This document shows, one piece after another, positions 5,671-64,000 of a stretch of 64,000 nucleotides of DNA. The notes under the pieces are model-generated. The model had not been told where the DNA came from. It searched no databases and was given only the letters and a program-made list of their open reading frames with translations. Each line of letters opens with the position of its first letter. The stretch's first letter is position 1. The stretch covers positions 32,001 through 96,000 of IMG/VR virus record IMGVR_UViG_3300031555_003522. The stretch is one strand, 5' to 3'. The position numbers were made by a program, and so were the translations under genes. The stretch is from a virus (lineage: Duplodnaviria; Caudoviricetes).

Positions 5671-8226
5671 TTAAATCCTTCTAATAAAACCCTTTAAAAG
5701 TTTAGCAACTGTTTCTACTGTAGTCGCTCTCAGTTTAATAGTTGCACTACTGAAAGGGCTATTTTCAAAATACTCGCTAAAATTAAATTCGGGTTCTAGT
5801 TCTAAAAGCTTCTTCATATAATGCTTAAAGTCATTCATAATCTTAGACTTAGCTTTATATTCATTAGAAGCTATCTGATCTTCTACAGGCATGCTAATAA
5901 ACTTCTTAGAATGGACTCTATTTTCAATAATACAGAGAATCATCCAAAGTTTTGCTAGTTCATATTTCATACCTACAGTATTTTCATTTTTATAATATTC
6001 TTTAAGTAGATTATGAGACTTTCTGTATTCCTCATCATAATCGATAGACTTGATATTCTTCAAAAGCATATTTCCATCTTTATCGAATTGCACAGGAAAC
6101 TCTTTGGTCTCACAATATACTACAGCTTCTGTAGATATAAATACCATATTTTTAAGCACTTTATATTCTACAGAATTTTTATTTAATACAGATTCGAGAT
6201 AAGGCCTAAGCATATTAAGCTTGTCTATATCTCCAGCAGAACTAACCACTTCATGTATATATTCTCTAGGTGTATATCTTCTAATAGATTCTTTAATAGG
6301 CTTAGCTGTATCTACTAAAGAATTAATAGTCTTTTTAACCTGTTCTGAATCATACTTGGTAGCAAGTCCTTCGTAGATTGTAAATATGCTTCTATTGGCT
6401 TTCATAGCATCTTTAATATCATGAGGAGATACCAAAGAAGAATCTTTATGCGTAAGATCTATATTACACAGCTTAAGACATCTATCTACAAACTGAGAAC
6501 ATACCATATTCAAATCATTATTATATGGGATATTGAATAAGTAAGTAAATAGATTCTTATAAGAATATCTCGTCTGCGTAGCCTTAGATTCCAGATCTGC
6601 TACCATATTTACAATAGCATTATAATCATTAGGCTTTAGGAAGAAAGTATATACTCTAATCCTGCATCCTAAAGGAACCTTGTCTATATTCTCTTCAATA
6701 AAGCCTCCCTTTATTCCATTAGGAGACTGGTCTATGCCATAGCTATACATTTTCTTTAATGTATAATCGAAGGATATAGATATATGAGAATATATATCTT
6801 TAGTGACTGCCTTGATAGCCTTGGAAATGAGTCTCTTTCCTTCAGTGAGAATCACATATACAGGTTTAAGATTCTTAGAAGAAGCAGATTCAATAAGAGG
6901 AGCATTTCTCGTAGAAATCATACCTCTTAAATCTATAAATCTAGTATTAGAAGAATTTTCTTTTATATAATATTCCATTCTAGCTTTAGCCATAAGGCGC
7001 TCTTTATTTTCAAAAGGAATATCAGGATTCCAACAAAGCTCAAGTATAGATTGCTTTCTTGCAGCAATAGCATTATCATTTTCAGAGGATTCTAGCACTT
7101 TTAATCCAAATGTAAGCTCTCTAACTTTCTGAATCCATGCTGGCATATAAGTAGAGAATTCTGTATAAAATCCATCAATATGAGCTTTATACATTTCAAA
7201 CCACTCTGCAACAGAAATTTCATCTGTTAGCATTTTATTATCTGCAAGAACTCCATAGAAATTATTACTAGGAATATCAGCAAATACTCCAGAATCTATA
7301 GCTTCATCAGGAGTTATAGCCGGCATATCACCATGAACAATATCTGCACTAGGTATATTGGATACTATTCCATCATAAGTATCTAACACATCCGATATTA
7401 CATTGTCTGTAATCATATTCTCATATATACCTTTATCAACAAGGCATATAGATAGTAGCTTATTAGCAATAGATATACCAGGAGAATTCTTGCAAGATTC
7501 CTTAAGATAATCTCTAGTAAGCTCTATAGAATCTCCAACAATATTGCCACTCTCGATCACACTATACATATCAACATCATTAGATCTGATATCCTGACGT
7601 AAAAATTGGGATTTCAAATACTCATAATGTTTTAAATTTGTGACGCCAAATACTTCTAGACTCATCCAGTCAGATTCTCTACGATGCTTTTTAATCATAC
7701 CATTATAAGCATCCCAAAGAGATTCTAACTCTTCAAGATTTCTAGTAGGGGTTATGATTATACGAGAACTCTCTTCTCCCCACTTAATAGCTTTCTCAAC
7801 ATCTGAGCTTGTATAATTAAGTGTATTTGAGTCATAGTAAGAACCGGTATAGTCTAAATCGATAGCGCCCTCACTAAGAGAAAAGCCCCCATCTGTGACT
7901 AGGTATTCACCATCTTCTATCTCATTATCTATATCTCTTTTAAGTAGATTAGACTTAATCATCTCATAATGATCTTGATTTGTAATTCCGAAGAGCTCTA
8001 TACTCTTCCAGTCAGATTCTCTACGATGCTTCTTAATCATACTATTAAATTTAATCCACTGATCTTCTAGATCTTGAAGATCTTCCGTAGGAATAATAAT
8101 AGTACGCATAGCATCATTAGACCAATTAATAGCATCACTAATACTAGATGCATTTATTTTATTCAAGTTCTTAGATCCACTTATATAGCTGGATACCATG
8201 AATTCTTTGTCTAGCATATTAGGCAT
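5671..8226 (-). CDS. Large late protein with two N-terminal tandem repeats and a permuted papain-like (YaeF/YiiX-type) amidase domain
   Basis: ISKAIKAVTKDIYSHISISFD...MVCSQFVDRCL (His before Cys, permuted NlpC/P60 order); repeat MIKKHRRESDW occurs twice; start placed at ATG 8226 (ORF track starts at 8274). Confidence 0.65.
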   Translation of the reverse strand: MPNMLDKEFMVSSYISGSKNLNKINASSISDAINWSNDAMRTIIIPTEDLQDLEDQWIKFNSMIKKHRRESDWKSIELFGITNQDHYEMIKSNLLKRDIDNEIEDGEYLVTDGGFSLSEGAIDLDYTGSYYDSNTLNYTSSDVEKAIKWGEESSRIIITPTRNLEELESLWDAYNGMIKKHRRESDWMSLEVFGVTNLKHYEYLKSQFLRQDIRSNDVDMYSVIESGNIVGDSIELTRDYLKESCKNSPGISIANKLLSICLVDKGIYENMITDNVISDVLDTYDGIVSNIPSADIVHGDMPAITPDEAIDSGVFADIPSNNFYGVLADNKMLTDEISVAEWFEMYKAHIDGFYTEFSTYMPAWIQKVRELTFGLKVLESSENDNAIAARKQSILELCWNPDIPFENKERLMAKARMEYYIKENSSNTRFIDLRGMISTRNAPLIESASSKNLKPVYVILTEGKRLISKAIKAVTKDIYSHISISFDYTLKKMYSYGIDQSPNGIKGGFIEENIDKVPLGCRIRVYTFFLKPNDYNAIVNMVADLESKATQTRYSYKNLFTYLFNIPYNNDLNMVCSQFVDRCLKLCNIDLTHKDSSLVSPHDIKDAMKANRSIFTIYEGLATKYDSEQVKKTINSLVDTAKPIKESIRRYTPREYIHEVVSSAGDIDKLNMLRPYLESVLNKNSVEYKVLKNMVFISTEAVVYCETKEFPVQFDKDGNMLLKNIKSIDYDEEYRKSHNLLKEYYKNENTVGMKYELAKLWMILCIIENRVHSKKFISMPVEDQIASNEYKAKSKIMNDFKHYMKKLLELEPEFNFSEYFENSPFSSATIKLRATTVETVAKLLKGFIRRI

Positions 8227-21678: not shown

Positions 21679-21686
21679 TATATTAT
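21679..21686 (+). promoter_or_regulatory. Early-type promoter motif TATATTAT (example)
   Basis: [T/C]ATATTAT recurs upstream of genes at 14972, 15929, 17871, 21679, 26095, 28480, 29283, 30668, 31481, 37724, 46888, 51526, 53053, 57567 (+) and 3569, 37693 (-); matches the early promoter type described for AR9/phiKZ. Confidence 0.7.
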
Positions 21687-21717
21687 ACTAGTGATCAATA
21701 TACAGGAGGTTAAAAAC

Positions 21718-24700
21718 ATGGGCCAACAAAAGGAATTAATGGAGGCTATGGAGTTCTTTGATCCCATACCATTTCAATATGTGGATGAATGGACACCTGG
21801 TCCGGACGATGAAGTCTTTAAAACTACTCGAGGCGCAATAATGTTAGATGTATCTGGTTTCTATGGGATGGAACCAAACCCACAGCTAGATGCATTTGTA
21901 TTGAGTGCTAAGAGGTCTTATAATAATCCTGATATGAGGACCCATACGTGCCATTACCTGAACTATTTTGAAAAATTCTATGATACTGATCACGAATTAC
22001 CAATGATTTATTGTAGATTAAAGTATCTCATTGATTGTGAACCTGCTTATAGTAGAGAGGCATTTATTTACGATCTTTATCGTTATATTATGCATGGATC
22101 TATCTATACAAAGGTTAGCTATATGAATGATGCTAACTACAGTCTATCATTAACCTATAAAAACGTGAAGAATCCTAATCTTCAATATAGTGATTGAGAA
22201 CAGTCACCTCGATATAGAAATATAGCGAGTAAAACTCCTCTAATTGCTGGAAACTCGTAAAGCTCATCTGCTACGGATATGGGAAACGAAAAAGGGAGTA
22301 CCTATCCTACAGAGACGAAAGTCAGAAACAAGTGATGAGATGATCTATGAGGAAACTCTAAGGGTTTAGCCATCAATCGACAACCAGCAGCCAAGCAAAT
22401 TAAGCTACGCAAACTAGCTTCGGATTATTTTAAACATATATTCGCCGGTATGATGGAATTGGTAAGACATAAGAGACTTAAAATCTCTCGGATTAAGTTC
22501 CGTACCGGTTCGAGTCCGGTTACCGGCACCAACCTATTTATAGATTCTGTGGTTATGAATCTATACCAAAATATAATCCACATACTTAACCAGCGTAGCC
22601 AAGTTGAAGGTTCAACGACTATCGAAAGGATAGTGCGACATGCTTGCAACGCATGTGCATGAATAACCGAGTAGAGTAGGGCTCGAGCGAGCTCGAAATG
22701 GGGAGCACCTTAGCGGATAAGTGCCGAAGGTGAAGATATAGTCTGGACTATGGGTAATGCCTATAGAAGTTCATTAAAGAACTGCGCACCAAAAGCGACG
22801 TGCGTGAACATCTCGAGGCATGGACGGATAATGATGAAAGTATCAGTCCTCATGAATATAATTATCCCTCTTATGTGTCATTTTATGTATGCGCGTAAGA
22901 TTGATAATACAACTGAGTTTATTCTCGCTGTCTACGACGTACTTATTGATCAGTATGACGTAGATATATACAATAAGCTGTACGAAACGGCTATCTCTAA
23001 TGTCTTACGTACAGCAAAAAGAAATCAAGCAATCTGGAATATGCAAGATATTCGTGGTATCAATACTAGTATCCACAGTCTACAGTCAGTACAGAATGTC
23101 TTGATAAATATAATGCCTTAACCAAACTAGGGCCATATGATAGCAATATCATATAGCAAACTCCTTTAATTGCTGGGAACTCTCACTGAGACAATCAGCA
23201 GCGAAGCCTCTATATGGGGAACGTTCAACGACTATCGAAAGGATAATGTAAGAGAAATACTTACATGAATAACCGAGTAGAGTAGGATTTATGTCCGAAA
23301 TGGGGAGCATCTTAAATATGGTAATAGTATTTGAGATGAAGATATAGTCTACTCCTTGCAGCGATGTAAGGTATACAGGAAATATAGGTACGATGGAAAT
23401 TTGTGACAAAGTTTCCTCATGTGGGAACACATGATCCAACAAGCTCTCTAATTGCTGGGAACTCTCACTGAGACAATCAGCAGCGAAGCCTCTATATGAG
23501 GAACGTTCAACGACTAGTCGAAAGACGTAGGTTCAAGCGAACCGAAATGGGAGCCACCCCAATGCTTAATAAATAAGTAATGGGTGAAGATATAGTCTGG
23601 TCTGCATGGCAACATGCAGTAGTTCATAAGAGAACAGTGTAAGATTAGCGATCTTACACGAACAACCGCTTGTCCATCTCAACTACAAGTCAATTTTACG
23701 AAATACTGGATTTCAGGTTCTGGATAATCATTTAAATGTCCACATACATGGTAACATGTATAGTAAAACTTCTTTAATTGCTGGAAGGCTAAACTTGATT
23801 AAGCAAGCATGCTAATCAGCAGCCAAGATGTTAATTTAATGATTCGGAGAGTATCTAAAATGATGACTTATGATTTTTCCAATTATTCTTATAATGGACT
23901 TCAAGTCCCTATAGAATTTTGGAAACCCATTACAGAAGAAATGGTTCCAAATGTGAAACCAATATACTTTGTAAGTAATATAGGAAATATTTATAATTCT
24001 GAGAATAATAAATATTCTATAATTACACTAAAAGCTGGTAGATATGTACAGGTTAGTCTTCGTACTAAAGATGGAGGACAAATCTGTATTCATATTCATA
24101 GATTAGTGGCCATGGCATTTCATGGAATGCCACCATCTAAAGACCATGAAGTAGATCATGTAAATTGCGATAAAACCTGTAATTTTGAGGGTAATCTTGA
24201 ATGGGTAACCCCAAAAGAAAATATAAATAGAGCTTGCATAAATAATTTGATTAGGATGGGTGAAGATAATTATAGAGCTATCTTAACCAATGATGATGTA
24301 ACTCATTTATGTGAATTACTAATGCAATCCATTCCTATCTCTAAAATATGTACTATGATGGAAGAGTATATCTATCCTAGAGTATATAGCAGCGGATTTA
24401 AAGGCTTAATAGGTCATATATTATGTGGAGATGTATGGAAAGAAATCGCAAGTCAATACAATTTTCCAGATTACGGTAGATTAAATTTTACCGATGATCA
24501 AGTTCGTATAATATGCGAATGCCTGAGCAGACAGGAACGATATATAGACATTCTTGATAAACTCGGTATGAGCAACTGTACAGAGCAGGAATTGAAGAGA
24601 CTAAAAGAGACTATATATAAGATCAAAGCAGGTAAGTCTTATGCTAATATTTCTTGTAATTACAATATTACAAGAAATAAGAGTTATATACTTACAAATA

Positions 24701-26029
24701 ATGAAGTTGATAGTATATGTAGGCAAGTAGCTCTTGGTATTGATAGAAAGGAAATAGTAAAATCCTTAGGCGAGCGTGGTAATGATAGAAAGGTAAAACA
24801 AGCAGCATATGATATATGTAATGGTATCTGCCATAAAAAAGAAGTCAATTATTATAGATCTCAATTAACAGAAGGTTCAACGACTATCGAAAAGGATCCT
24901 AATAAGGATTAACTGAGTAGAGTAGGGCTCAAGCGAGTTCGAAATGGGAAGGGTCCACTAAAGTGGATCGTGATATAGTCTCAACTGTATGGAAACATGC
25001 AGAAGTTCATAGGAGAACTGCATAGGAGTTGCGATCCTATGTGAAGGTAATGATAGAATATGAATTCAGCTTCGTATCTCTTTCCTCAAGTCGCAGAGAC
25101 GAGGATCTTAATTCTGAATTTGATAAATTTGAGTCAACTTAAGAAAAGGCTCCTTGTTATAGAAATATAGCAAGCAAACCTCTTGAATTGCTGGGAACTC
25201 TTAATGCCTATCTGCCTATATGGAGACGAAAGTCAGAAACAAGTGATGGGATGATCTATGGGGAAACCCTAATGATTTTGATAATAGATAATCAGCAGCG
25301 AAGCCTCTTATTGAGAGGAACGTTCAACGACTATCGAAAGGCATCTATAGGATGAACCGAGTAGAGTAGGATATTTATATATCCGAAGTGGGAGGTACCT
25401 GACCGAGTAATGTCGAAGGTAATGATATAGTCTACTGAATAAGAACAGCTTTTCTTAATAAAGCAGATGAGCAGCTTCTGGTTCAGCATAATTGCGCTGC
25501 TAGAGATGCTATGACTATGATTGAAATGATGTATGGTCCTTTTGATGAGGAAGAAATATTGTTCTATAAACATCGTCTTGCAGATGGTGGGAAATGTACA
25601 ATCAATGCGTTCCAGAGAGACCTCATCTTCAATCTATTCTTTAAGTATTTTGGTGATACTGCTAGCTTAAATGCTATTAACTTCGATGACTATGTCAAGT
25701 TAATTATGGCATCCAGAAGAATTCTTGAAGCTTCTGGAATGGTATTATTGCCCTATATTGTAAGCTCTAAGATTGTTCGTCTTGCTAGCCGCAAGAGTGT
25801 GAACAAGAAAGAGCTTACCAAATTAGAATCTTCTCCCCTATGGGAAAAGATCAAAGATAAGTATAAGAATGATAAAATTGAGAAACACATACTTGGTATG
25901 ATTGCTGTCATATTAAGTAGTGACTTCGAGATCATTGATCCGGAAGATCTGGAGCTTGATGGCCAAGCTATTACAGTGATTCCTGAACTGATCTGTGAAG
26001 AAATTCTCATGTATATTAGTCTTATCTAA
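21718..26029 (+). CDS. Non-virion RNAP sigma-like promoter-specificity subunit (AR9 gp226/phiKZ gp68 type), spliced: join(21718..22194,22816..23118,23380..23400,23669..23725,25053..25134,25449..26029), ~506 aa
   Basis: All five 5' splice sites end in U paired to G in a P1 helix, all 3' sites end in G, and the exons join in frame (NLQYSD|RHGRIMM, INIMP|KYRYDGN|LVHLNY, FQVLD|IEYEF, DKFE-S-FLNKAD). Motifs KRSYNN, SVLMNIIIPLMCHF, YNKLYE, EEILMYISLI match my recollection of AR9 gp226 (not verified by search). Confidence 0.8.
22195..22815 (+). mobile_element. Group I intron 1 (contains tRNA-Leu in P6 extension)
   Basis: P1 gtgat/gtcac; core motifs taattgctgg, accagcagccaag, gaaggttcaacgacta, gaagatatagtct; terminal G22815. 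Confidence 0.9.
22444..22531 (+). tRNA. trnL: tRNA-Leu (anticodon TAA), 88 nt, CCA encoded
   Basis: Acceptor GCCGGTA/TACCGGC-A-CCA; anticodon arm agaga-ctTAAaa-tctct; long variable arm; T-arm accgg-ttcgagt-ccggt. Confidence 0.93.
23119..23379 (+). mobile_element. Group I intron 2 (261 nt, no ORF)
   Basis: P1 gcct/gggc; taattgctggg, aatcagcagcgaag, gttcaacgacta, gaagatatagtct; terminal G23379. Confidence 0.88.
23401..23668 (+). mobile_element. Group I intron 3 (268 nt, no ORF)
   Basis: P1 ggaaat/gtttcc; P10 gacaa:ttgtc with 3' exon; same core motifs; terminal G23668. Confidence 0.9.
23726..25052 (+). mobile_element. Group I intron 4 carrying HNH homing endonuclease in P6
   Basis: P1 tggat/gtcca; aatcagcagccaag ... 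ORF ... gaaggttcaacgacta; gatatagtct; terminal G25052. Confidence 0.9.
23860..24912 (+). CDS. Intron-encoded NUMOD4/HNH homing endonuclease with three C-terminal helical repeats
   Basis: EFWKPI..YFVSNIGNI, HIHRLVAMAF..VDHVNCDKTCNFEGNLEWVTPKEN; repeats ILTNDDV/FTDDQV/ILTNNEV..IC; GGAG SD before ATG 23860; 3' end overlaps the intron core. Confidence 0.9.
   Translation: MMTYDFSNYSYNGLQVPIEFWKPITEEMVPNVKPIYFVSNIGNIYNSENNKYSIITLKAGRYVQVSLRTKDGGQICIHIHRLVAMAFHGMPPSKDHEVDHVNCDKTCNFEGNLEWVTPKENINRACINNLIRMGEDNYRAILTNDDVTHLCELLMQSIPISKICTMMEEYIYPRVYSSGFKGLIGHILCGDVWKEIASQYNFPDYGRLNFTDDQVRIICECLSRQERYIDILDKLGMSNCTEQELKRLKETIYKIKAGKSYANISCNYNITRNKSYILTNNEVDSICRQVALGIDRKEIVKSLGERGNDRKVKQAAYDICNGICHKKEVNYYRSQLTEGSTTIEKDPNKD
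25135..25448 (+). mobile_element. Group I intron 5 (314 nt, phase 1)
   Basis: P1 gagt/gctc; perfect 10-bp P10 ttaagaaaag:cttttcttaa with 3' exon; core motifs; terminal G25448 restores the frame of ORF 25511. Confidence 0.92.
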
Positions 26030-26628: not shown

Positions 26629-27597
26629 ATGATTTATTCTATTACCGAAGGCCAGCAGGCTGAAGAATATAAAGCTAGAAAGGCTAAAGAGGCTGAAGAA
26701 CATATTGCAAAAAATACAAGTAGATCTGAAACTGATTCTCTTGGAGATGGAATTATAAATTCACATTTTGTTGGGAATAAGACTAAAATACTTGATGATA
26801 AGAAAGGGCATTTTAAATTTAGCCATACGGATACTCGACGAAGAGAGATGGCTATGAATAAAGTAGTGGATGAAACTAAAAGAAGAAATGATAAAGCACT
26901 TCAAAATTTTACTCCTATAAATAATAGAAATGCGGATAATCTGCTTAGTGATAAATATTTTGGGGTTGCTGTTGATGCTGTAAATCGTCATATGCGGCGT
27001 CATCCTGATCAATATAAAGAATCTTTTTTACTTACAGAAGAAGATGCCGATGAATTCTTAGAATCTATCGGTGTAACTTTATATGAAGACTATGTTACTA
27101 TTGGAGAATGTTCCATTCCTGGAGTGGAAGCTGAAGCTATTCTGGAAGAGCACGGTATCTTCTTATGTGAAGAAGGTATCATTATCGAAGGTGAACAGGC
27201 TGAAGAATATAAGGCTAGAAAAGCAAAAGAAAAAGAAGATGCTAAGCAAGCTGATGATGATCGTTTTATGAGGAGATACATGCCTAGAATAGATGAAAAA
27301 GGACGTCAACATAACGATCCCGGAGATAAGACTATTGGATATGGGCATGGTAGTGATGATTTCGATAGAGCTATGAAAGCACACGATATGGCTAATCGCG
27401 AATATAATAGGCGGACCATTGCTATGATGAATTCTAAGTTACGTGGTGATGATAAACAAACTGTTCGACAAAAAGAAAAAGAATGGCTGAAATCTGTTGG
27501 TGAGACACCTAGAGATGCTGCTAATCGTCATATGCGTCGTCATCCTAAACAGTATAAAGAATCTTGTGGTATTTTCTCTAATGTAGCATTTATCTAA
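26629..27597 (+). CDS. Late modular protein (two basic cargo modules), MIYSITE N-tag and ESCGIFSNVAFI C-tag; probable internal head protein
   Basis: Internal duplication EG[QE]QAEEYKARKAKE...A[VA]NRHMRRHP.QYKES; late promoter AACG-N6-TA 26592-26603. Confidence 0.75.
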   Translation: MIYSITEGQQAEEYKARKAKEAEEHIAKNTSRSETDSLGDGIINSHFVGNKTKILDDKKGHFKFSHTDTRRREMAMNKVVDETKRRNDKALQNFTPINNRNADNLLSDKYFGVAVDAVNRHMRRHPDQYKESFLLTEEDADEFLESIGVTLYEDYVTIGECSIPGVEAEAILEEHGIFLCEEGIIIEGEQAEEYKARKAKEKEDAKQADDDRFMRRYMPRIDEKGRQHNDPGDKTIGYGHGSDDFDRAMKAHDMANREYNRRTIAMMNSKLRGDDKQTVRQKEKEWLKSVGETPRDAANRHMRRHPKQYKESCGIFSNVAFI

Positions 27598-27732: not shown

Positions 27733-28434
27733 ATGGAAAGAATTATTCTTACTGAAGCCGATGCCGATGAATTCTTAGAATCTATTGGTGTCACTTTATA
27801 TGAAAAGGCTATGAATATTGGAGGAAATATTGTATTTGGAGTAGACGGCCAAGAGGCCCTTCAAGAATATGGTATCTTCTTATATGAAGATTATATTTTG
27901 GTTGAAGGTGAGCAAGCTGAGGCTTACAAAGCTAAAAAGGCTAAAGAAAAAGAAGAAGAATCTAAAAAATATGATAAATATGATAATGATAATTTTAAAG
28001 ATTCTGCCCCAAAATTTATGAAGGGTTCTAGAGCAAATAATAGTGTAGGAAATCAAGCTAGTTTAAAACAGATTGATATCAAGGATATTAAAGGGTCTAC
28101 TAAAAAATATAGCGATACTAGATCTAATGACAGTATTAGGCGGCAGTATGCTTCGGATATAGTAGAAAAAGATAGATTAAATAGAAACCCTCAATATAGC
28201 GGAAAAGGAATAACTATTAGAACTTCTGATGGTAAACCTAGTTCATGGACTTTAGAAAGAGATTATAGAAAAGGAGCAATCAATCAAAATCCTCTTTATG
28301 ATAAATATTTCGATGATAAAGATAAAAGAATAGCATATTTTGCAGCTAAAGATGCTGCAAATAGACATTTACGTAGGCATACTAAGACGGTAAAAGAATC
28401 TTGTGGTATCTTCTCTAATGTAGCTTTTATCTAA
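27733..28434 (+). CDS. Paralog of 26629..27597 (one cargo module, same C-tag)
   Basis: LTE.DADEFLESIGVTLYE, EGEQAEAYKAKKAKE, DAANRHLRRH, ESCGIFSNVAFI; same upstream element. Confidence 0.78.
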   Translation: MERIILTEADADEFLESIGVTLYEKAMNIGGNIVFGVDGQEALQEYGIFLYEDYILVEGEQAEAYKAKKAKEKEEESKKYDKYDNDNFKDSAPKFMKGSRANNSVGNQASLKQIDIKDIKGSTKKYSDTRSNDSIRRQYASDIVEKDRLNRNPQYSGKGITIRTSDGKPSSWTLERDYRKGAINQNPLYDKYFDDKDKRIAYFAAKDAANRHLRRHTKTVKESCGIFSNVAFI

Positions 28435-31521: not shown

Positions 31522-33852
31522 ATGATAATCATGTTAATGGAACACAATAAGGAGACTTATGAACAATTTAAAGCTATGCTTCTTGAGCATCGCGAATGCT
31601 GCCTTATTGCGGCAACTGGCGCAGGTAAGACTTATATTACTCTTCAATTGATCAAGGATCTTAATTTAAAGGCATTAATTATTAGTCCTAGGGTTAATAT
31701 ACAAAATTCTTGGATAAAGAAATCAAAAAAGTATGGCATTCAAATAACTAGCACAACATATACCAATCTATATTTCAACATCGATGATTTCAATGGTTAT
31801 GATATTTATATTTTTGATGAGGCCCACCATATGGGAAGTGCCAAATGGGGAAAAGCTATAAATGATCTTAGATCATCATTATGTAAAAATATAATGGTTG
31901 TAGGTCTTACAGCAACCCCAGAAAGATATGAGACCTCATTTCGTAAGCAAATTATCGATATCTCATCAGCATTATTCAATGATCATATAGTATATGGGTA
32001 TACTCTAGACAATGCAATAAAGCTTGGGATTTTCTCTCCTGCGACTTATGTTTGTGCTATTTTTAATACAAATGATATACTAAAAAAGTATAGTAATGAT
32101 ATTTCCTTGGAGCTTAAAGGAAGACTTGATCTATCAATCCAGAATGCCGTGAAGATAGATGAGATATTGAAAAAGCATACTTCTTCCTTAGATAATATTA
32201 AAGGAATAGTATTTGTAGAAACTATAGATTCTGTTGATGAAGCATATGACTTAATAAGTAGCGTATTTCCGAACTTAATGGTCGAAAGTATTCATTCAAG
32301 AAAATCAAAAATTGCAAATACCGAAATTATTGAGGAATTTGAAAAAGCAGAATCCGGTTTTATAATAGCAGTTGATATGCTAAATGAAGGCATTCATATA
32401 TCTGGTATAAATACAATAGTCATGCTTAGAAAGACATTTAGCCCAACCCTATATAATCAGCAGGTAGGTAGAGGTTTTTCATCATCGGCTAATGAAAATA
32501 CTATAATATTCGATTTTGTAGGAAATGTTGTTTCTATAGAAAAAACTTTATCTTTATATAGTAATACTCAAAGATATAAAAGTTTTATTATGAATTATAA
32601 TAGTGATAAGGCCAGAGAGATATGTATATCAGATCAATGCATCATATACGATTATGCTTCTGATATTTTGGAGGTATTAAAAAATATAAATGATTATAGA
32701 AATAAGAATAGAAAATGGACGCAAGAAGAGGATGATATAATTAGAAATAATTATAAAGACAAAGGCGCCGAAGGATGCTCTAAGTTATTAATGAACAGAA
32801 CCATTTATGCATGTAGATCTAGGGCGCAAATACTAGGATTAAGCGATAGTTTTCAACCATGGACAGAAGAGGAAGATAATATTTTAAGAGAAAACTACCC
32901 AAAGATTGGATCCAAAGTATTTGAACTAATTCCAAATAGAACGGTTAATGCTATAAAGAATAGGGTAATTTTACTCGGTTTAAGGGTATACGATCGAAAA
33001 TGGTCAGAGGATGAAATATCAATATTAAGAGATTACTATCCATCGGCTAGTATATCTACACTTATGGAGATGCTACCAAATAGAAGTTATAGTGCTATTA
33101 GAAATACCGCAGTCAAATATAATATTATACGCAATGATTGCTCTTGGACTGAAGATGAGGATAATATTATATTGATCAATTACCCTAAAATTGGAGAAAA
33201 AGTGGTAGAGTTACTTCCAAATAGAACCAAACGTGCAATCAGTAAAAGGGCCAATATCCTTGGTGTTAAACGATCGAACTGGATGTGGACAGAAGAGGAA
33301 GATAATATTTTAAGAGAAAACTATCCGAAAATCGGAAAGGATGTGGTAAAATTACTCCCTGGAAGGGGGTATAAAGCATGCTACACTAGAGCTAATGCGT
33401 TAGGATTAAAGGCCGATTCATCTTTTGATAGATGGACTGAAGAGGAAGATAATATTTTAAGAGAATATTATCCTAAAATTGGAGTAAAAGTGATCGATCT
33501 ACTTCCAAATAGGTCTATTAGTGCTATAAAAAGTAGAGCAAAAAATATCAATGTGCTATTAAATCGGCTGTGGACAGAAGAGGAAGATAATATTTTAAGA
33601 GAAAATTACTCCAAGAATATTAAAATAGAAGCTATAGCTGAACTTCTTCCTGGTAGAACCATTGATGGCGTAAGAGCTAGAGTAAAATATTTAGGAATAT
33701 GTAATAGAATTACTAGATGGACAGAAGAGGAAGATAATATTTTAAGAGAAAATTACTCCAAGAATATTAAAATAGAAGCTATAGCTGAACTTCTTCCTGG
33801 TAGAACCACCGAATCAATTAGAAAAAGAATATCGTATTTACAATCAAGATAA
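31522..33852 (+). CDS. Superfamily 2 (DEAH, ResIII-like) helicase fused to eight Myb/SANT-like HTH repeats
   Basis: ATGAGKT, DEAHH, GLTATPER, MLNEGIHI, QQVGRG; eight W[TS].EED.IL..Y...L..R[TS]...R repeats. Confidence 0.88.
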   Translation: MIIMLMEHNKETYEQFKAMLLEHRECCLIAATGAGKTYITLQLIKDLNLKALIISPRVNIQNSWIKKSKKYGIQITSTTYTNLYFNIDDFNGYDIYIFDEAHHMGSAKWGKAINDLRSSLCKNIMVVGLTATPERYETSFRKQIIDISSALFNDHIVYGYTLDNAIKLGIFSPATYVCAIFNTNDILKKYSNDISLELKGRLDLSIQNAVKIDEILKKHTSSLDNIKGIVFVETIDSVDEAYDLISSVFPNLMVESIHSRKSKIANTEIIEEFEKAESGFIIAVDMLNEGIHISGINTIVMLRKTFSPTLYNQQVGRGFSSSANENTIIFDFVGNVVSIEKTLSLYSNTQRYKSFIMNYNSDKAREICISDQCIIYDYASDILEVLKNINDYRNKNRKWTQEEDDIIRNNYKDKGAEGCSKLLMNRTIYACRSRAQILGLSDSFQPWTEEEDNILRENYPKIGSKVFELIPNRTVNAIKNRVILLGLRVYDRKWSEDEISILRDYYPSASISTLMEMLPNRSYSAIRNTAVKYNIIRNDCSWTEDEDNIILINYPKIGEKVVELLPNRTKRAISKRANILGVKRSNWMWTEEEDNILRENYPKIGKDVVKLLPGRGYKACYTRANALGLKADSSFDRWTEEEDNILREYYPKIGVKVIDLLPNRSISAIKSRAKNINVLLNRLWTEEEDNILRENYSKNIKIEAIAELLPGRTIDGVRARVKYLGICNRITRWTEEEDNILRENYSKNIKIEAIAELLPGRTTESIRKRISYLQSR

Positions 33853-37748: not shown

Positions 37749-37825
37749 GGGCCCATCGCCTAGCTGGTTAAGGCCTTCTGCTCATAACAGAACCACCGCA
37801 AGTTCGAGTCTTGCTGGGCCCACCA
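37749..37825 (+). tRNA. tRNA with CAT anticodon, probably tRNA-Ile2 (lysidine type); elongator Met not excluded
   Basis: Acceptor GGGCCCA/TGGGCCC-A-CCA (G1-C72, so not initiator; C4-G69/C5-G68 as in TilS substrates); ttctg-ctCATaa-cagaa; T-arm gcaag-ttcgagt-cttgc. Confidence 0.9.
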
Positions 37826-63760: not shown

Positions 63761-64000
63761 ACCTAACGGTAATCACAGCTTGTATAGTAATATGCAAGTT
63801 CCCCGGGTTAACTGCTGGCAATCCCTAAAGCCTTAAGCACTACAACGTGATCTGAAAAGATGAGCGTGAATGTTACGAAAGTAGAAAAAAGCTTAAGGAT
63901 GGACTATGGTTAAATCCTAAGGTCTAACTCGACAAATGGGTCTTCAGCAGCCAATCACTTGTAAAATAGTGAAGGTTCAACGACTATCCCCTGGCAGGGG
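63760..64000 (+). mobile_element. Group I intron in helicase Walker A (truncated by window end; exact 5' splice site uncertain)
   Basis: P2 cttgtat-agtaat-atgcaag; ttaactgctgg; ttcagcagccaa; gaaggttcaacgacta. Confidence 0.85.

Follow-up and report, generated by a model that had tools for sequence, protein, structure and literature searches.

A tRNA-Leu(UAA) gene inside a group I intron of a jumbo phage RNA polymerase gene, and the tRNA top half conserved in its relatives

Group I introns of phages are regarded as selfish elements with an endonuclease as their sole cargo, and it is not settled how they persist for long without one. In cyanobacteria and plastids a group I intron lies inside tRNA-Leu(UAA). 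Mimics of the tRNA top half include the T4 species 1 and 2 RNAs and the MALAT1 mascRNA, all RNase P-type substrates; to our knowledge, none lies within a self-splicing intron. The phage P4/P1-type small RNAs such as C4, together with tmRNA, are also top-half mimics with an RCCA end that undergo tRNA-like maturation without decoding (PMC10731613), and none is known from such an intron. Phage tRNA genes occur in the linker of the large structured GOLLD RNAs, but there is no intron and no mRNA is interrupted (PMC12286853). Another near case is the corallimorpharian mitochondrial ND5-717 intron, which holds a tRNA gene in a peripheral element; its P8 insert is, however, nearly the whole 18-19 kb genome including one tRNA, and the intron is removed by back-splicing (PMC6545197). 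Phage subgroup IA introns (T4 td; AR9 and phiKZ RNAP genes; Bastillevirinae, PMC11878797; reviewed in PMC3984707) have a P/Q/R/S core, a U-G pair at the 5' splice site and a terminal G, and those with an endonuclease ORF loop it out of the core within a protein-gene host. No tRNA cargo was found by keyword in the latter two articles. The literature searched, with subscription journals largely outside its coverage, did not describe a phage group I intron loaded with a tRNA or minihelix.

We analyzed a window of 64,000 nucleotides from a virus record of 207,861 bases (IMG/VR IMGVR_UViG_3300031555_003522, positions 32,001 to 96,000). Intron 1 of its sigma-like RNA polymerase gene shares both components with the cyanobacterial and plastid tRNA-Leu(UAA) intron, but the nesting is reversed: the tRNA is intact and the intron splits a protein gene. 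The core resembles that of phage subgroup IA introns; however, the cargo is a tRNA or its top half and no ORF, which gives no mobility and would be excised at the RNA level. Compared with ND5-717, the insert comprises 210 nt in P6a, holds a tRNA alone and belongs to a phage. Each component is ordinary, and the novelty is their combination as tRNA cargo in a phage group I intron. Features are collected in Table 1.

Table 1. Coordinates of the host gene, intron 1 and its cargo in the window, and sites of similar cargo in related loci (L numbers)
Feature	Position	Strand	Remarks
AR9-like early promoter motif, TATATTAT-N5-TG	21679..21693	+	Candidate promoter
Exon 1 (159 codons), AR9 gp226-like sigma-type nvRNAP subunit gene	21718..22194	+	
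P1 helix	22190..22207	+	U22194-G22203 pair at 5' splice site
Group I intron 1, 621 nt	22195..22815	+	RF00028; in-frame junction; no ORF cargo; first of five in gene
Core element P	22242..22253	+	
Core element Q / P6 5' strand	22385..22395	+	
P6a clamp helices, 5' strands	22404..22428	+	22404-22410, 22422-22428
5' leader, AU-rich, unpaired	22429..22443	+	AACA at -11..-8, near match to late promoter
tRNA-Leu(UAA), 88 nt	22444..22531	+	ARAGORN, Rfam; A73 and encoded CCA; anticodon 22479-22481
Trailer, U/A-rich	22532..22572	+	Non-terminator hairpin at about 22539-22565
P6a clamp helices, 3' strands	22573..22599	+	22573-22579, 22593-22599
Core element R (P6 3' strand, P7 5' strand)	22606..22621	+	
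P3 3' strand, P8, core element S (P7 3' strand)	22698..22743	+	
Exon 2	22816..23118	+	PHROG 25005 RNA polymerase
Group I intron 2	23119..23379	+	Empty P6
Exon 3 (21 nt)	23380..23400	+	
Group I intron 3	23401..23668	+	Empty P6; L259 ortholog holds tRNA-Leu(UAA)
Exon 4 (57 nt)	23669..23725	+	
Group I intron 4	23726..25052	+	HNH endonuclease ORF (23809-24912) in P6 slot
Exon 5 (82 nt)	25053..25134	+	
Group I intron 5	25135..25448	+	Empty P6
Exon 6	25449..26029	+	Includes stop codon
tRNA-Leu(UAA) cargo	Near codon 155, L498		
tRNA-Leu(UAA) cargo	Codon 267, L259		
tRNA-Leu(UAG) cargo	Codon 284, L181		
Minihelices	Codon 304, L179, L182-185, L197		
Tandem tRNA-Gln + tRNA-Lys	Codons about 315-323, L211		No encoded CCA
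tRNA-Leu(UAA) cargo	Codon 383, L499/L500		
138-nt tRNA-shaped RNA	Codon 383, L005/L173		
tRNA-type cargo	Beta-prime gene, L311, L349		Intron at catalytic ADFD/GD motif

The source genome (208 kb, 34% G+C) contains two tRNA genes and about 15 group I introns. Its Pfam matches to multisubunit RNA polymerase, divergent family B polymerase, DnaB, phiKZ vertex protein, chaperonin and dCTP deaminase indicate a jumbo phage related to phiKZ and AR9. Removal of intron 1 and the four further introns gave an open 506-aa frame colinear with intronless homologs, to which junction 1 (YSD/RHG) aligned without gaps. One intronless homolog (L009), 49% identical to the spliced window protein, matched the AR9 nvRNAP subunit 7s01_A in the PDB (E 7e-12) and PHROG 25005 (E 3e-20). 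From this homolog's match to 7s01 chain A, the host gene is assigned as the gp226-like promoter-specificity subunit, the sigma-like nvRNAP subunit of AR9 (gp226) and phiKZ (gp68), in line with the sigma-like subunit proposed in the earlier note. A Spo0A homolog in a related phage locus (L496:11332-12111) and a histidine-kinase-like ATPase of the anti-sigma type in the source genome hint at a spore-forming Firmicute host. Elsewhere on the window's plus strand are a 776-aa helicase whose C-terminal half comprises about eight tandem Myb/D5-like repeats (31522-33852), and a paralogous ORF pair with common repeated short motifs and an identical C-terminal end (26629-27597 and 27733-28434). The genome's only other tRNA gene is a free-standing tRNA-Met(CAU) at 37749-37825 (+); some 60 bases before it, each strand has early-promoter-like motifs. 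A further group I intron core lies at the window edge (63800-64000 and beyond), a region for which the Pfam batch gave a TnpB-like match.

Intron 1 carried all four elements P, Q, R and S together with P3, P7 and P8 pairing. Its ends are fixed by the terminal G22815 and by P1, in which 22190-22196 pairs with 22201-22207 and includes U22194-G22203. Rfam RF00028 matched 22185-22766 at 51 bits (cut-off 50, E 5e-10), and orthologous introns scored 39-51 bits because of the P6a insert. The alignment places a 210-nt insertion containing the tRNA between Q and R, at the P6a position, and one of ~75 nt after R; by this insertion between P7 and P3 the intron may be IA-like. By sequence tests it is an ordinary phage group I intron, predicted to self-splice. 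No homing endonuclease ORF was seen in intron 1 or its 15 orthologs. Intron 4 of the same gene is exactly an endonuclease-bearing intron of the known kind: its HNH ORF (PHROG 59, E 1e-31) occupies the same Q-R slot as the intron 1 cargo, as had been proposed along with the idea that the tRNA is cargo in an endonuclease position. Short ORF-like inserts of 300-420 nt, far below the HNH insert in size, were also seen in P6 slots on the minus strand of the source genome near 167268 (outside the window) and in L498 (1794-2091 and 9140-9465).

The complete, CCA-ended tRNA-Leu(UAA) described in the earlier note was recovered by ARAGORN, as tRNA-Leu(taa), and by Rfam RF00005 (54.8 bits, cut-off 29). 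It is canonical type II in sequence, with U8, A14, A15-U48, G18G19, U33, a 4-bp variable arm, a normal T-loop, A73 and an encoded CCA. MFE folding mispaired the D-arm, which is common for an unmodified tRNA, and these MFE folds were left out of the evidence. The element thus reads as an ordinary type II tRNA-Leu(UAA), predicted to mature and be charged. The closing stems reported around it were found at 22404-22410/22593-22599 and 22422-22428/22573-22579. Once the cargo was removed, the flanks of every element cofolded better than they folded apart (-26.7 versus -16.0 kcal/mol in the window). An assembly artefact or chance was ruled out: independent assemblies repeat the arrangement, and shuffles gave 0/200.

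Relatives were found by gathering exon 1 homologs from viral contigs, metagenomes and assemblies. All 16 distinct full-length introns at codon 159 carry an acceptor stem, T-arm and ACCA in P6a on the sense strand; some of these rows are near-identical, leaving about 14 lineages. Ten cargoes are tRNA-Leu genes (nine UAG, plus the window UAA). The anticodon arm is altered or absent in the remaining six, two of them bare minihelices, and cargo size ranges from a full tRNA down to a 48-nt minihelix. A GAAA tetraloop replaces the anticodon loop in L496 and L537, and both the D and anticodon arms are gone from L005 and L540. The exon tree pairs L005 with L173 as sisters (100/99), the latter with a full tRNA, and places L540 elsewhere, so these arms were lost at codon 159 at least twice. 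The L261 cargo (5671-5910) resembles tRNA-Asn(GUU), with discriminator A and an Asn-type loop interrupted by a 30-nt T-arm-like hairpin. L499 (6733-6808) has CUA (amber) at the anticodon position of a non-canonical loop; TAG recoding was not seen in the locus, and stop-codon recoding was rejected as the ground for this anticodon as coding density is not raised. Similarity of the window tRNA was 0.80 to Leu(UAA) genes elsewhere and 0.53-0.72 to the orthologous Leu(UAG) cargo. This disfavours a UAG-to-UAA point switch of the anticodon and, with the nearer genes lying in other introns, weakly suggests replacement of the whole gene.

Similar cargo was present in introns at at least five other sites of the sigma-like gene and in the beta-prime gene; most other introns of these genes lack it. 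Codon 304 saw a further loss of the D and anticodon arms, and L179, L182 and L197 show compensatory changes relative to one another. At codon 267 the window has an empty intron and L259 a loaded one, and in many other loci that slot holds long ORFs. Cargo therefore appears to turn over by gain, exchange and loss, in much the same way as endonuclease genes. Three successive introns with AT-rich closing stems in L211 (1058-2522) hold a tRNA-like element that contains a long insert, 290 nt of unexplained sequence, and the tandem tRNA-Gln and tRNA-Lys. The 138-nt tRNA-shaped RNA, which has enlarged anticodon and variable arms, occupies P6 slots at L311:7397-7575 (= L565), L005:10225-10402 and L173:2090-2267, in host introns of two different genes (the beta-prime ADFD/GD site and sigma-like codon 383); no Rfam match was reported for the L005 copy.

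Pattern scans of viral contigs for a tRNA between Q and R gave 109 and 19 matches, with an intron core only in this phage family, a restriction that holds at limited sensitivity because exact patterns overlook divergent introns. Two wider scans added only L311 and L349, both jumbo-phage beta-prime genes, among the matches listed. None of 36 matches in bacterial genomes had an intron core. Exon 1 had no tblastn match among annotated phages, and blastn with the intron returned only short tRNA or core matches.

Across 25 distinct elements from these introns, 124/125 T-stem cells and 174/174 acceptor cells were paired, and each acceptor position showed 2-6 pair types; picking the 5' strand by best pairing biases the acceptor count, although ARAGORN ends agree for full tRNAs. 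ACCA ends all 25. The leader is conserved in register (A(-4) in 21/23, U(-3) in 23/23, A(-2) in 19/23 and U(-1) in 18/23). As the elements are related, these counts are not independent. The window leader is unpaired (P 0.05) and followed by G(+1), but has C at -1 where the family mostly has U(-1); some other leaders are predicted to be partly paired. AU-rich leaders are common upstream of tRNA genes in AT-rich DNA. Every minihelix retains an exact 7+5 bp geometry, a 7-nt loop, ACCA and leader while its flanks diverge. Non-standard, reduced elements outscored 200/200 shuffled P6 segments; taken alone, minihelices form weak folds (z -1.0 and -1.8, the L005 reference being one base off). The anticodon is the least conserved part of the cargo, and even the lower half is dispensable in some lineages. 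Comparison across the family thus shows a CCA-ended top half, and not the anticodon, to be the feature apparently under selection, a conserved unit that the earlier note had missed.

Bacterial RNase P measures the 12-bp acceptor plus T stem and contacts both the T-loop and RCCA, with A(-2)U(-1) as its optimal leader end and G(+1) also preferred; the cargo has the stem, loop and 3' RCCA that these substrate criteria name (PMC10731613). The retained set (12-bp top half, T-loop, RCCA and A-U-A-U leader) corresponds to that recognized by bacterial RNase P, and cleavage is predicted. Other proteins read the acceptor stem, T-arm and CCA as well, so these features do not point to RNase P alone.

Captured tRNA genes could alternatively be neutral passengers decaying in an insert-tolerant loop, with the minihelices as their last compact remnant. 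One cargo is visibly decayed: the tRNA-Tyr-like insert at L349:2919-3039, in the beta-prime ADFD/GD intron of a different jumbo phage, has an unpaired acceptor and no CCA. Variable cargo among orthologous codon-267 introns and the tRNA-free half of the near-complete relatives fit neutral decay as well. However, it would have to account for retention in 16/16 introns at codon 159 and for geometry, loop, ACCA and leader surviving in all minihelices with compensatory changes, and we consider it highly improbable. Leu cargo predominates and its anticodon drifts, and LeuRS largely ignores the anticodon. The tRNA shape might then stay in the intron and recruit a host tRNA-binding protein such as LeuRS to stabilize the ribozyme, as the fungal mitochondrial TyrRS does; synthetase-assisted group I splicing is known (PMC4275181). 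Such binding needs neither an internal CCA nor an RNase P-type leader, minihelices have no D-arm, and sister introns in the gene have an empty P6, which makes an aid to splicing just as hard to credit.

Transcription signals bear on whether the tRNA depends on the host mRNA. The early motif TATATTAT-N5-TG, which resembles the AR9 early consensus (PMC5312081), has 27 matches in the genome, 26 of them outside ORFs, and one lies 39 bases upstream of the host gene. No terminator-like site was present within the intron, and no internal early promoter in the cargo leaders reached the training minimum. An AR9-like late motif, AAC[AT]-N6-TAA, is strongly enriched upstream of genes here. The tRNA could on this basis be a stand-alone gene in a tolerant loop, with a late promoter to itself and transcription independent of splicing, as for endonuclease genes borne by introns. 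Its AACA is exactly placed relative to the first G of the tRNA, and in AR9 the base at -1 has little influence (PMC5449584); a second cassette type (codon 267 in L259; codon 383 in L499/L500) has a full late-promoter match 27 nt upstream. However, the internal motif AAC[AT]-N6-T[AG] is not conserved, the window alone having a near match among codon-159 elements. AAC at -13..-10 occurs in no other of them, and the nearest relative, L253 (96% exon identity), has AACA two bases out of register. By a rough estimate one such match in about 25 leaders is plausible by chance, and a separate late promoter seems decidedly unlikely. Given the candidate early promoter, the lack of an intron terminator-like site and the lack of a conserved internal promoter, tRNA output is probably tied to the pre-mRNA, as first suggested.

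We favor, at a probability of about 0.58, an intron-hosted tRNA or tRNA-like RNA that RNase P releases and that helices clamp, which would allow splicing to proceed despite the cut. The gene would be transcribed from the early phage promoter and the ribozyme would fold with its cargo looped out of P6a, the slot assigned from sequence. Host RNase P would cut at the first acceptor-stem base, and host 3' nucleases would trim the U-rich trailer to the encoded CCA. The flanking helices would keep the intron halves paired, making a cut before or after splicing probably harmless. In this phage the product would be a normal tRNA-Leu(UAA). Two separate halves of the T4 td intron routinely splice together in an assay described in PMC3201874, which cites a study of that intron's P6-L6a region.

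The earlier note had instead proposed a timing switch, with a cut before splicing severing the mRNA. Taken further, RNase P would compete with splicing, an early cut would destroy the message of the subunit needed for late transcription, the minihelix would be a regulatory cleavage site, and the tRNA would be incidental. That some introns keep nothing more than an RNase P substrate agrees with cleavage itself having a role, and the cargo clusters in a single gene, the AR9 homolog of which governs late promoters. Among 94 classifiable protein clusters (at least 60% identity), 87 stop at codon 159 and 7 read through, in a search biased by length class, although no endonuclease ORF was apparent in the intron; most of the 87 end exactly at the junction, where the intron begins with a stop codon. 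Against a switch, intronless alleles exist in close relatives at 68-77% identity, similar cargo sits in a beta-prime intron, and clamp helices hold the intron halves. With paired flanks, and with td trans-splicing from halves (PMC3201874), harmless release is the likelier outcome and severing of the mRNA as a dosage or timing device is unlikely.

What the released RNA does is a separate matter. Likely candidate roles are to supplement the tRNA pool, to serve as a decoy for host defences directed at tRNA and its ends, or to expose the excised intron to degradation. Relatives with tRNA genes commonly have a free-standing tRNA-Leu(UAA), which makes a working tRNA-Leu plausible for the window; as 10/16 orthologs remain normal tRNA-Leu genes, most copies may be accounted for by tRNA supply alone. 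UUA is indeed common, as had been stated, but it is only the second Leu codon (20.5% of Leu codons; CUU 33.9%). Any tRNA is absent from 9/15 related phage records, among them the L005 genome (75% complete), which keeps two tRNA-shaped cargoes. Codon rank and these tRNA-free records indicate that codon supply is not the whole story. The suggestion that a useful UUA tRNA protects the intron from loss appears doubtful for the same tRNA-free records and because orthologs carry UAG, CUA, a GAAA loop or no anticodon arm. No Pfam match to a phage-encoded RNA ligase, CCA enzyme or synthetase was obtained among 140 of about 150 ORFs of at least 140 aa. More tentatively, and with the odds against it, the true product of these RNase P-processed carriers may be the CCA-ended top half, needed apart from decoding as a decoy for host toxins directed at tRNA ends or as a cleavage signal that tunes late-factor mRNA.

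These observations suggest that the introns are carriers for small RNAs cut out by host tRNA-trimming enzymes. Throughout a phage clade an intron devoid of an endonuclease retains tRNA-shaped cargo, apparently under selection, and at one site loaded and empty versions of the same intron both occur. The intron and RNase P, both of them ribozymes, would work on a single RNA. With the anticodon the least conserved element, the family bears on why phages carry tRNAs. If the introns do act as RNase P-processed carriers of a top half needed apart from decoding, they would parallel, in viruses of prokaryotes, the small RNAs encoded by introns, and endonuclease-free introns would gain a reason to persist.
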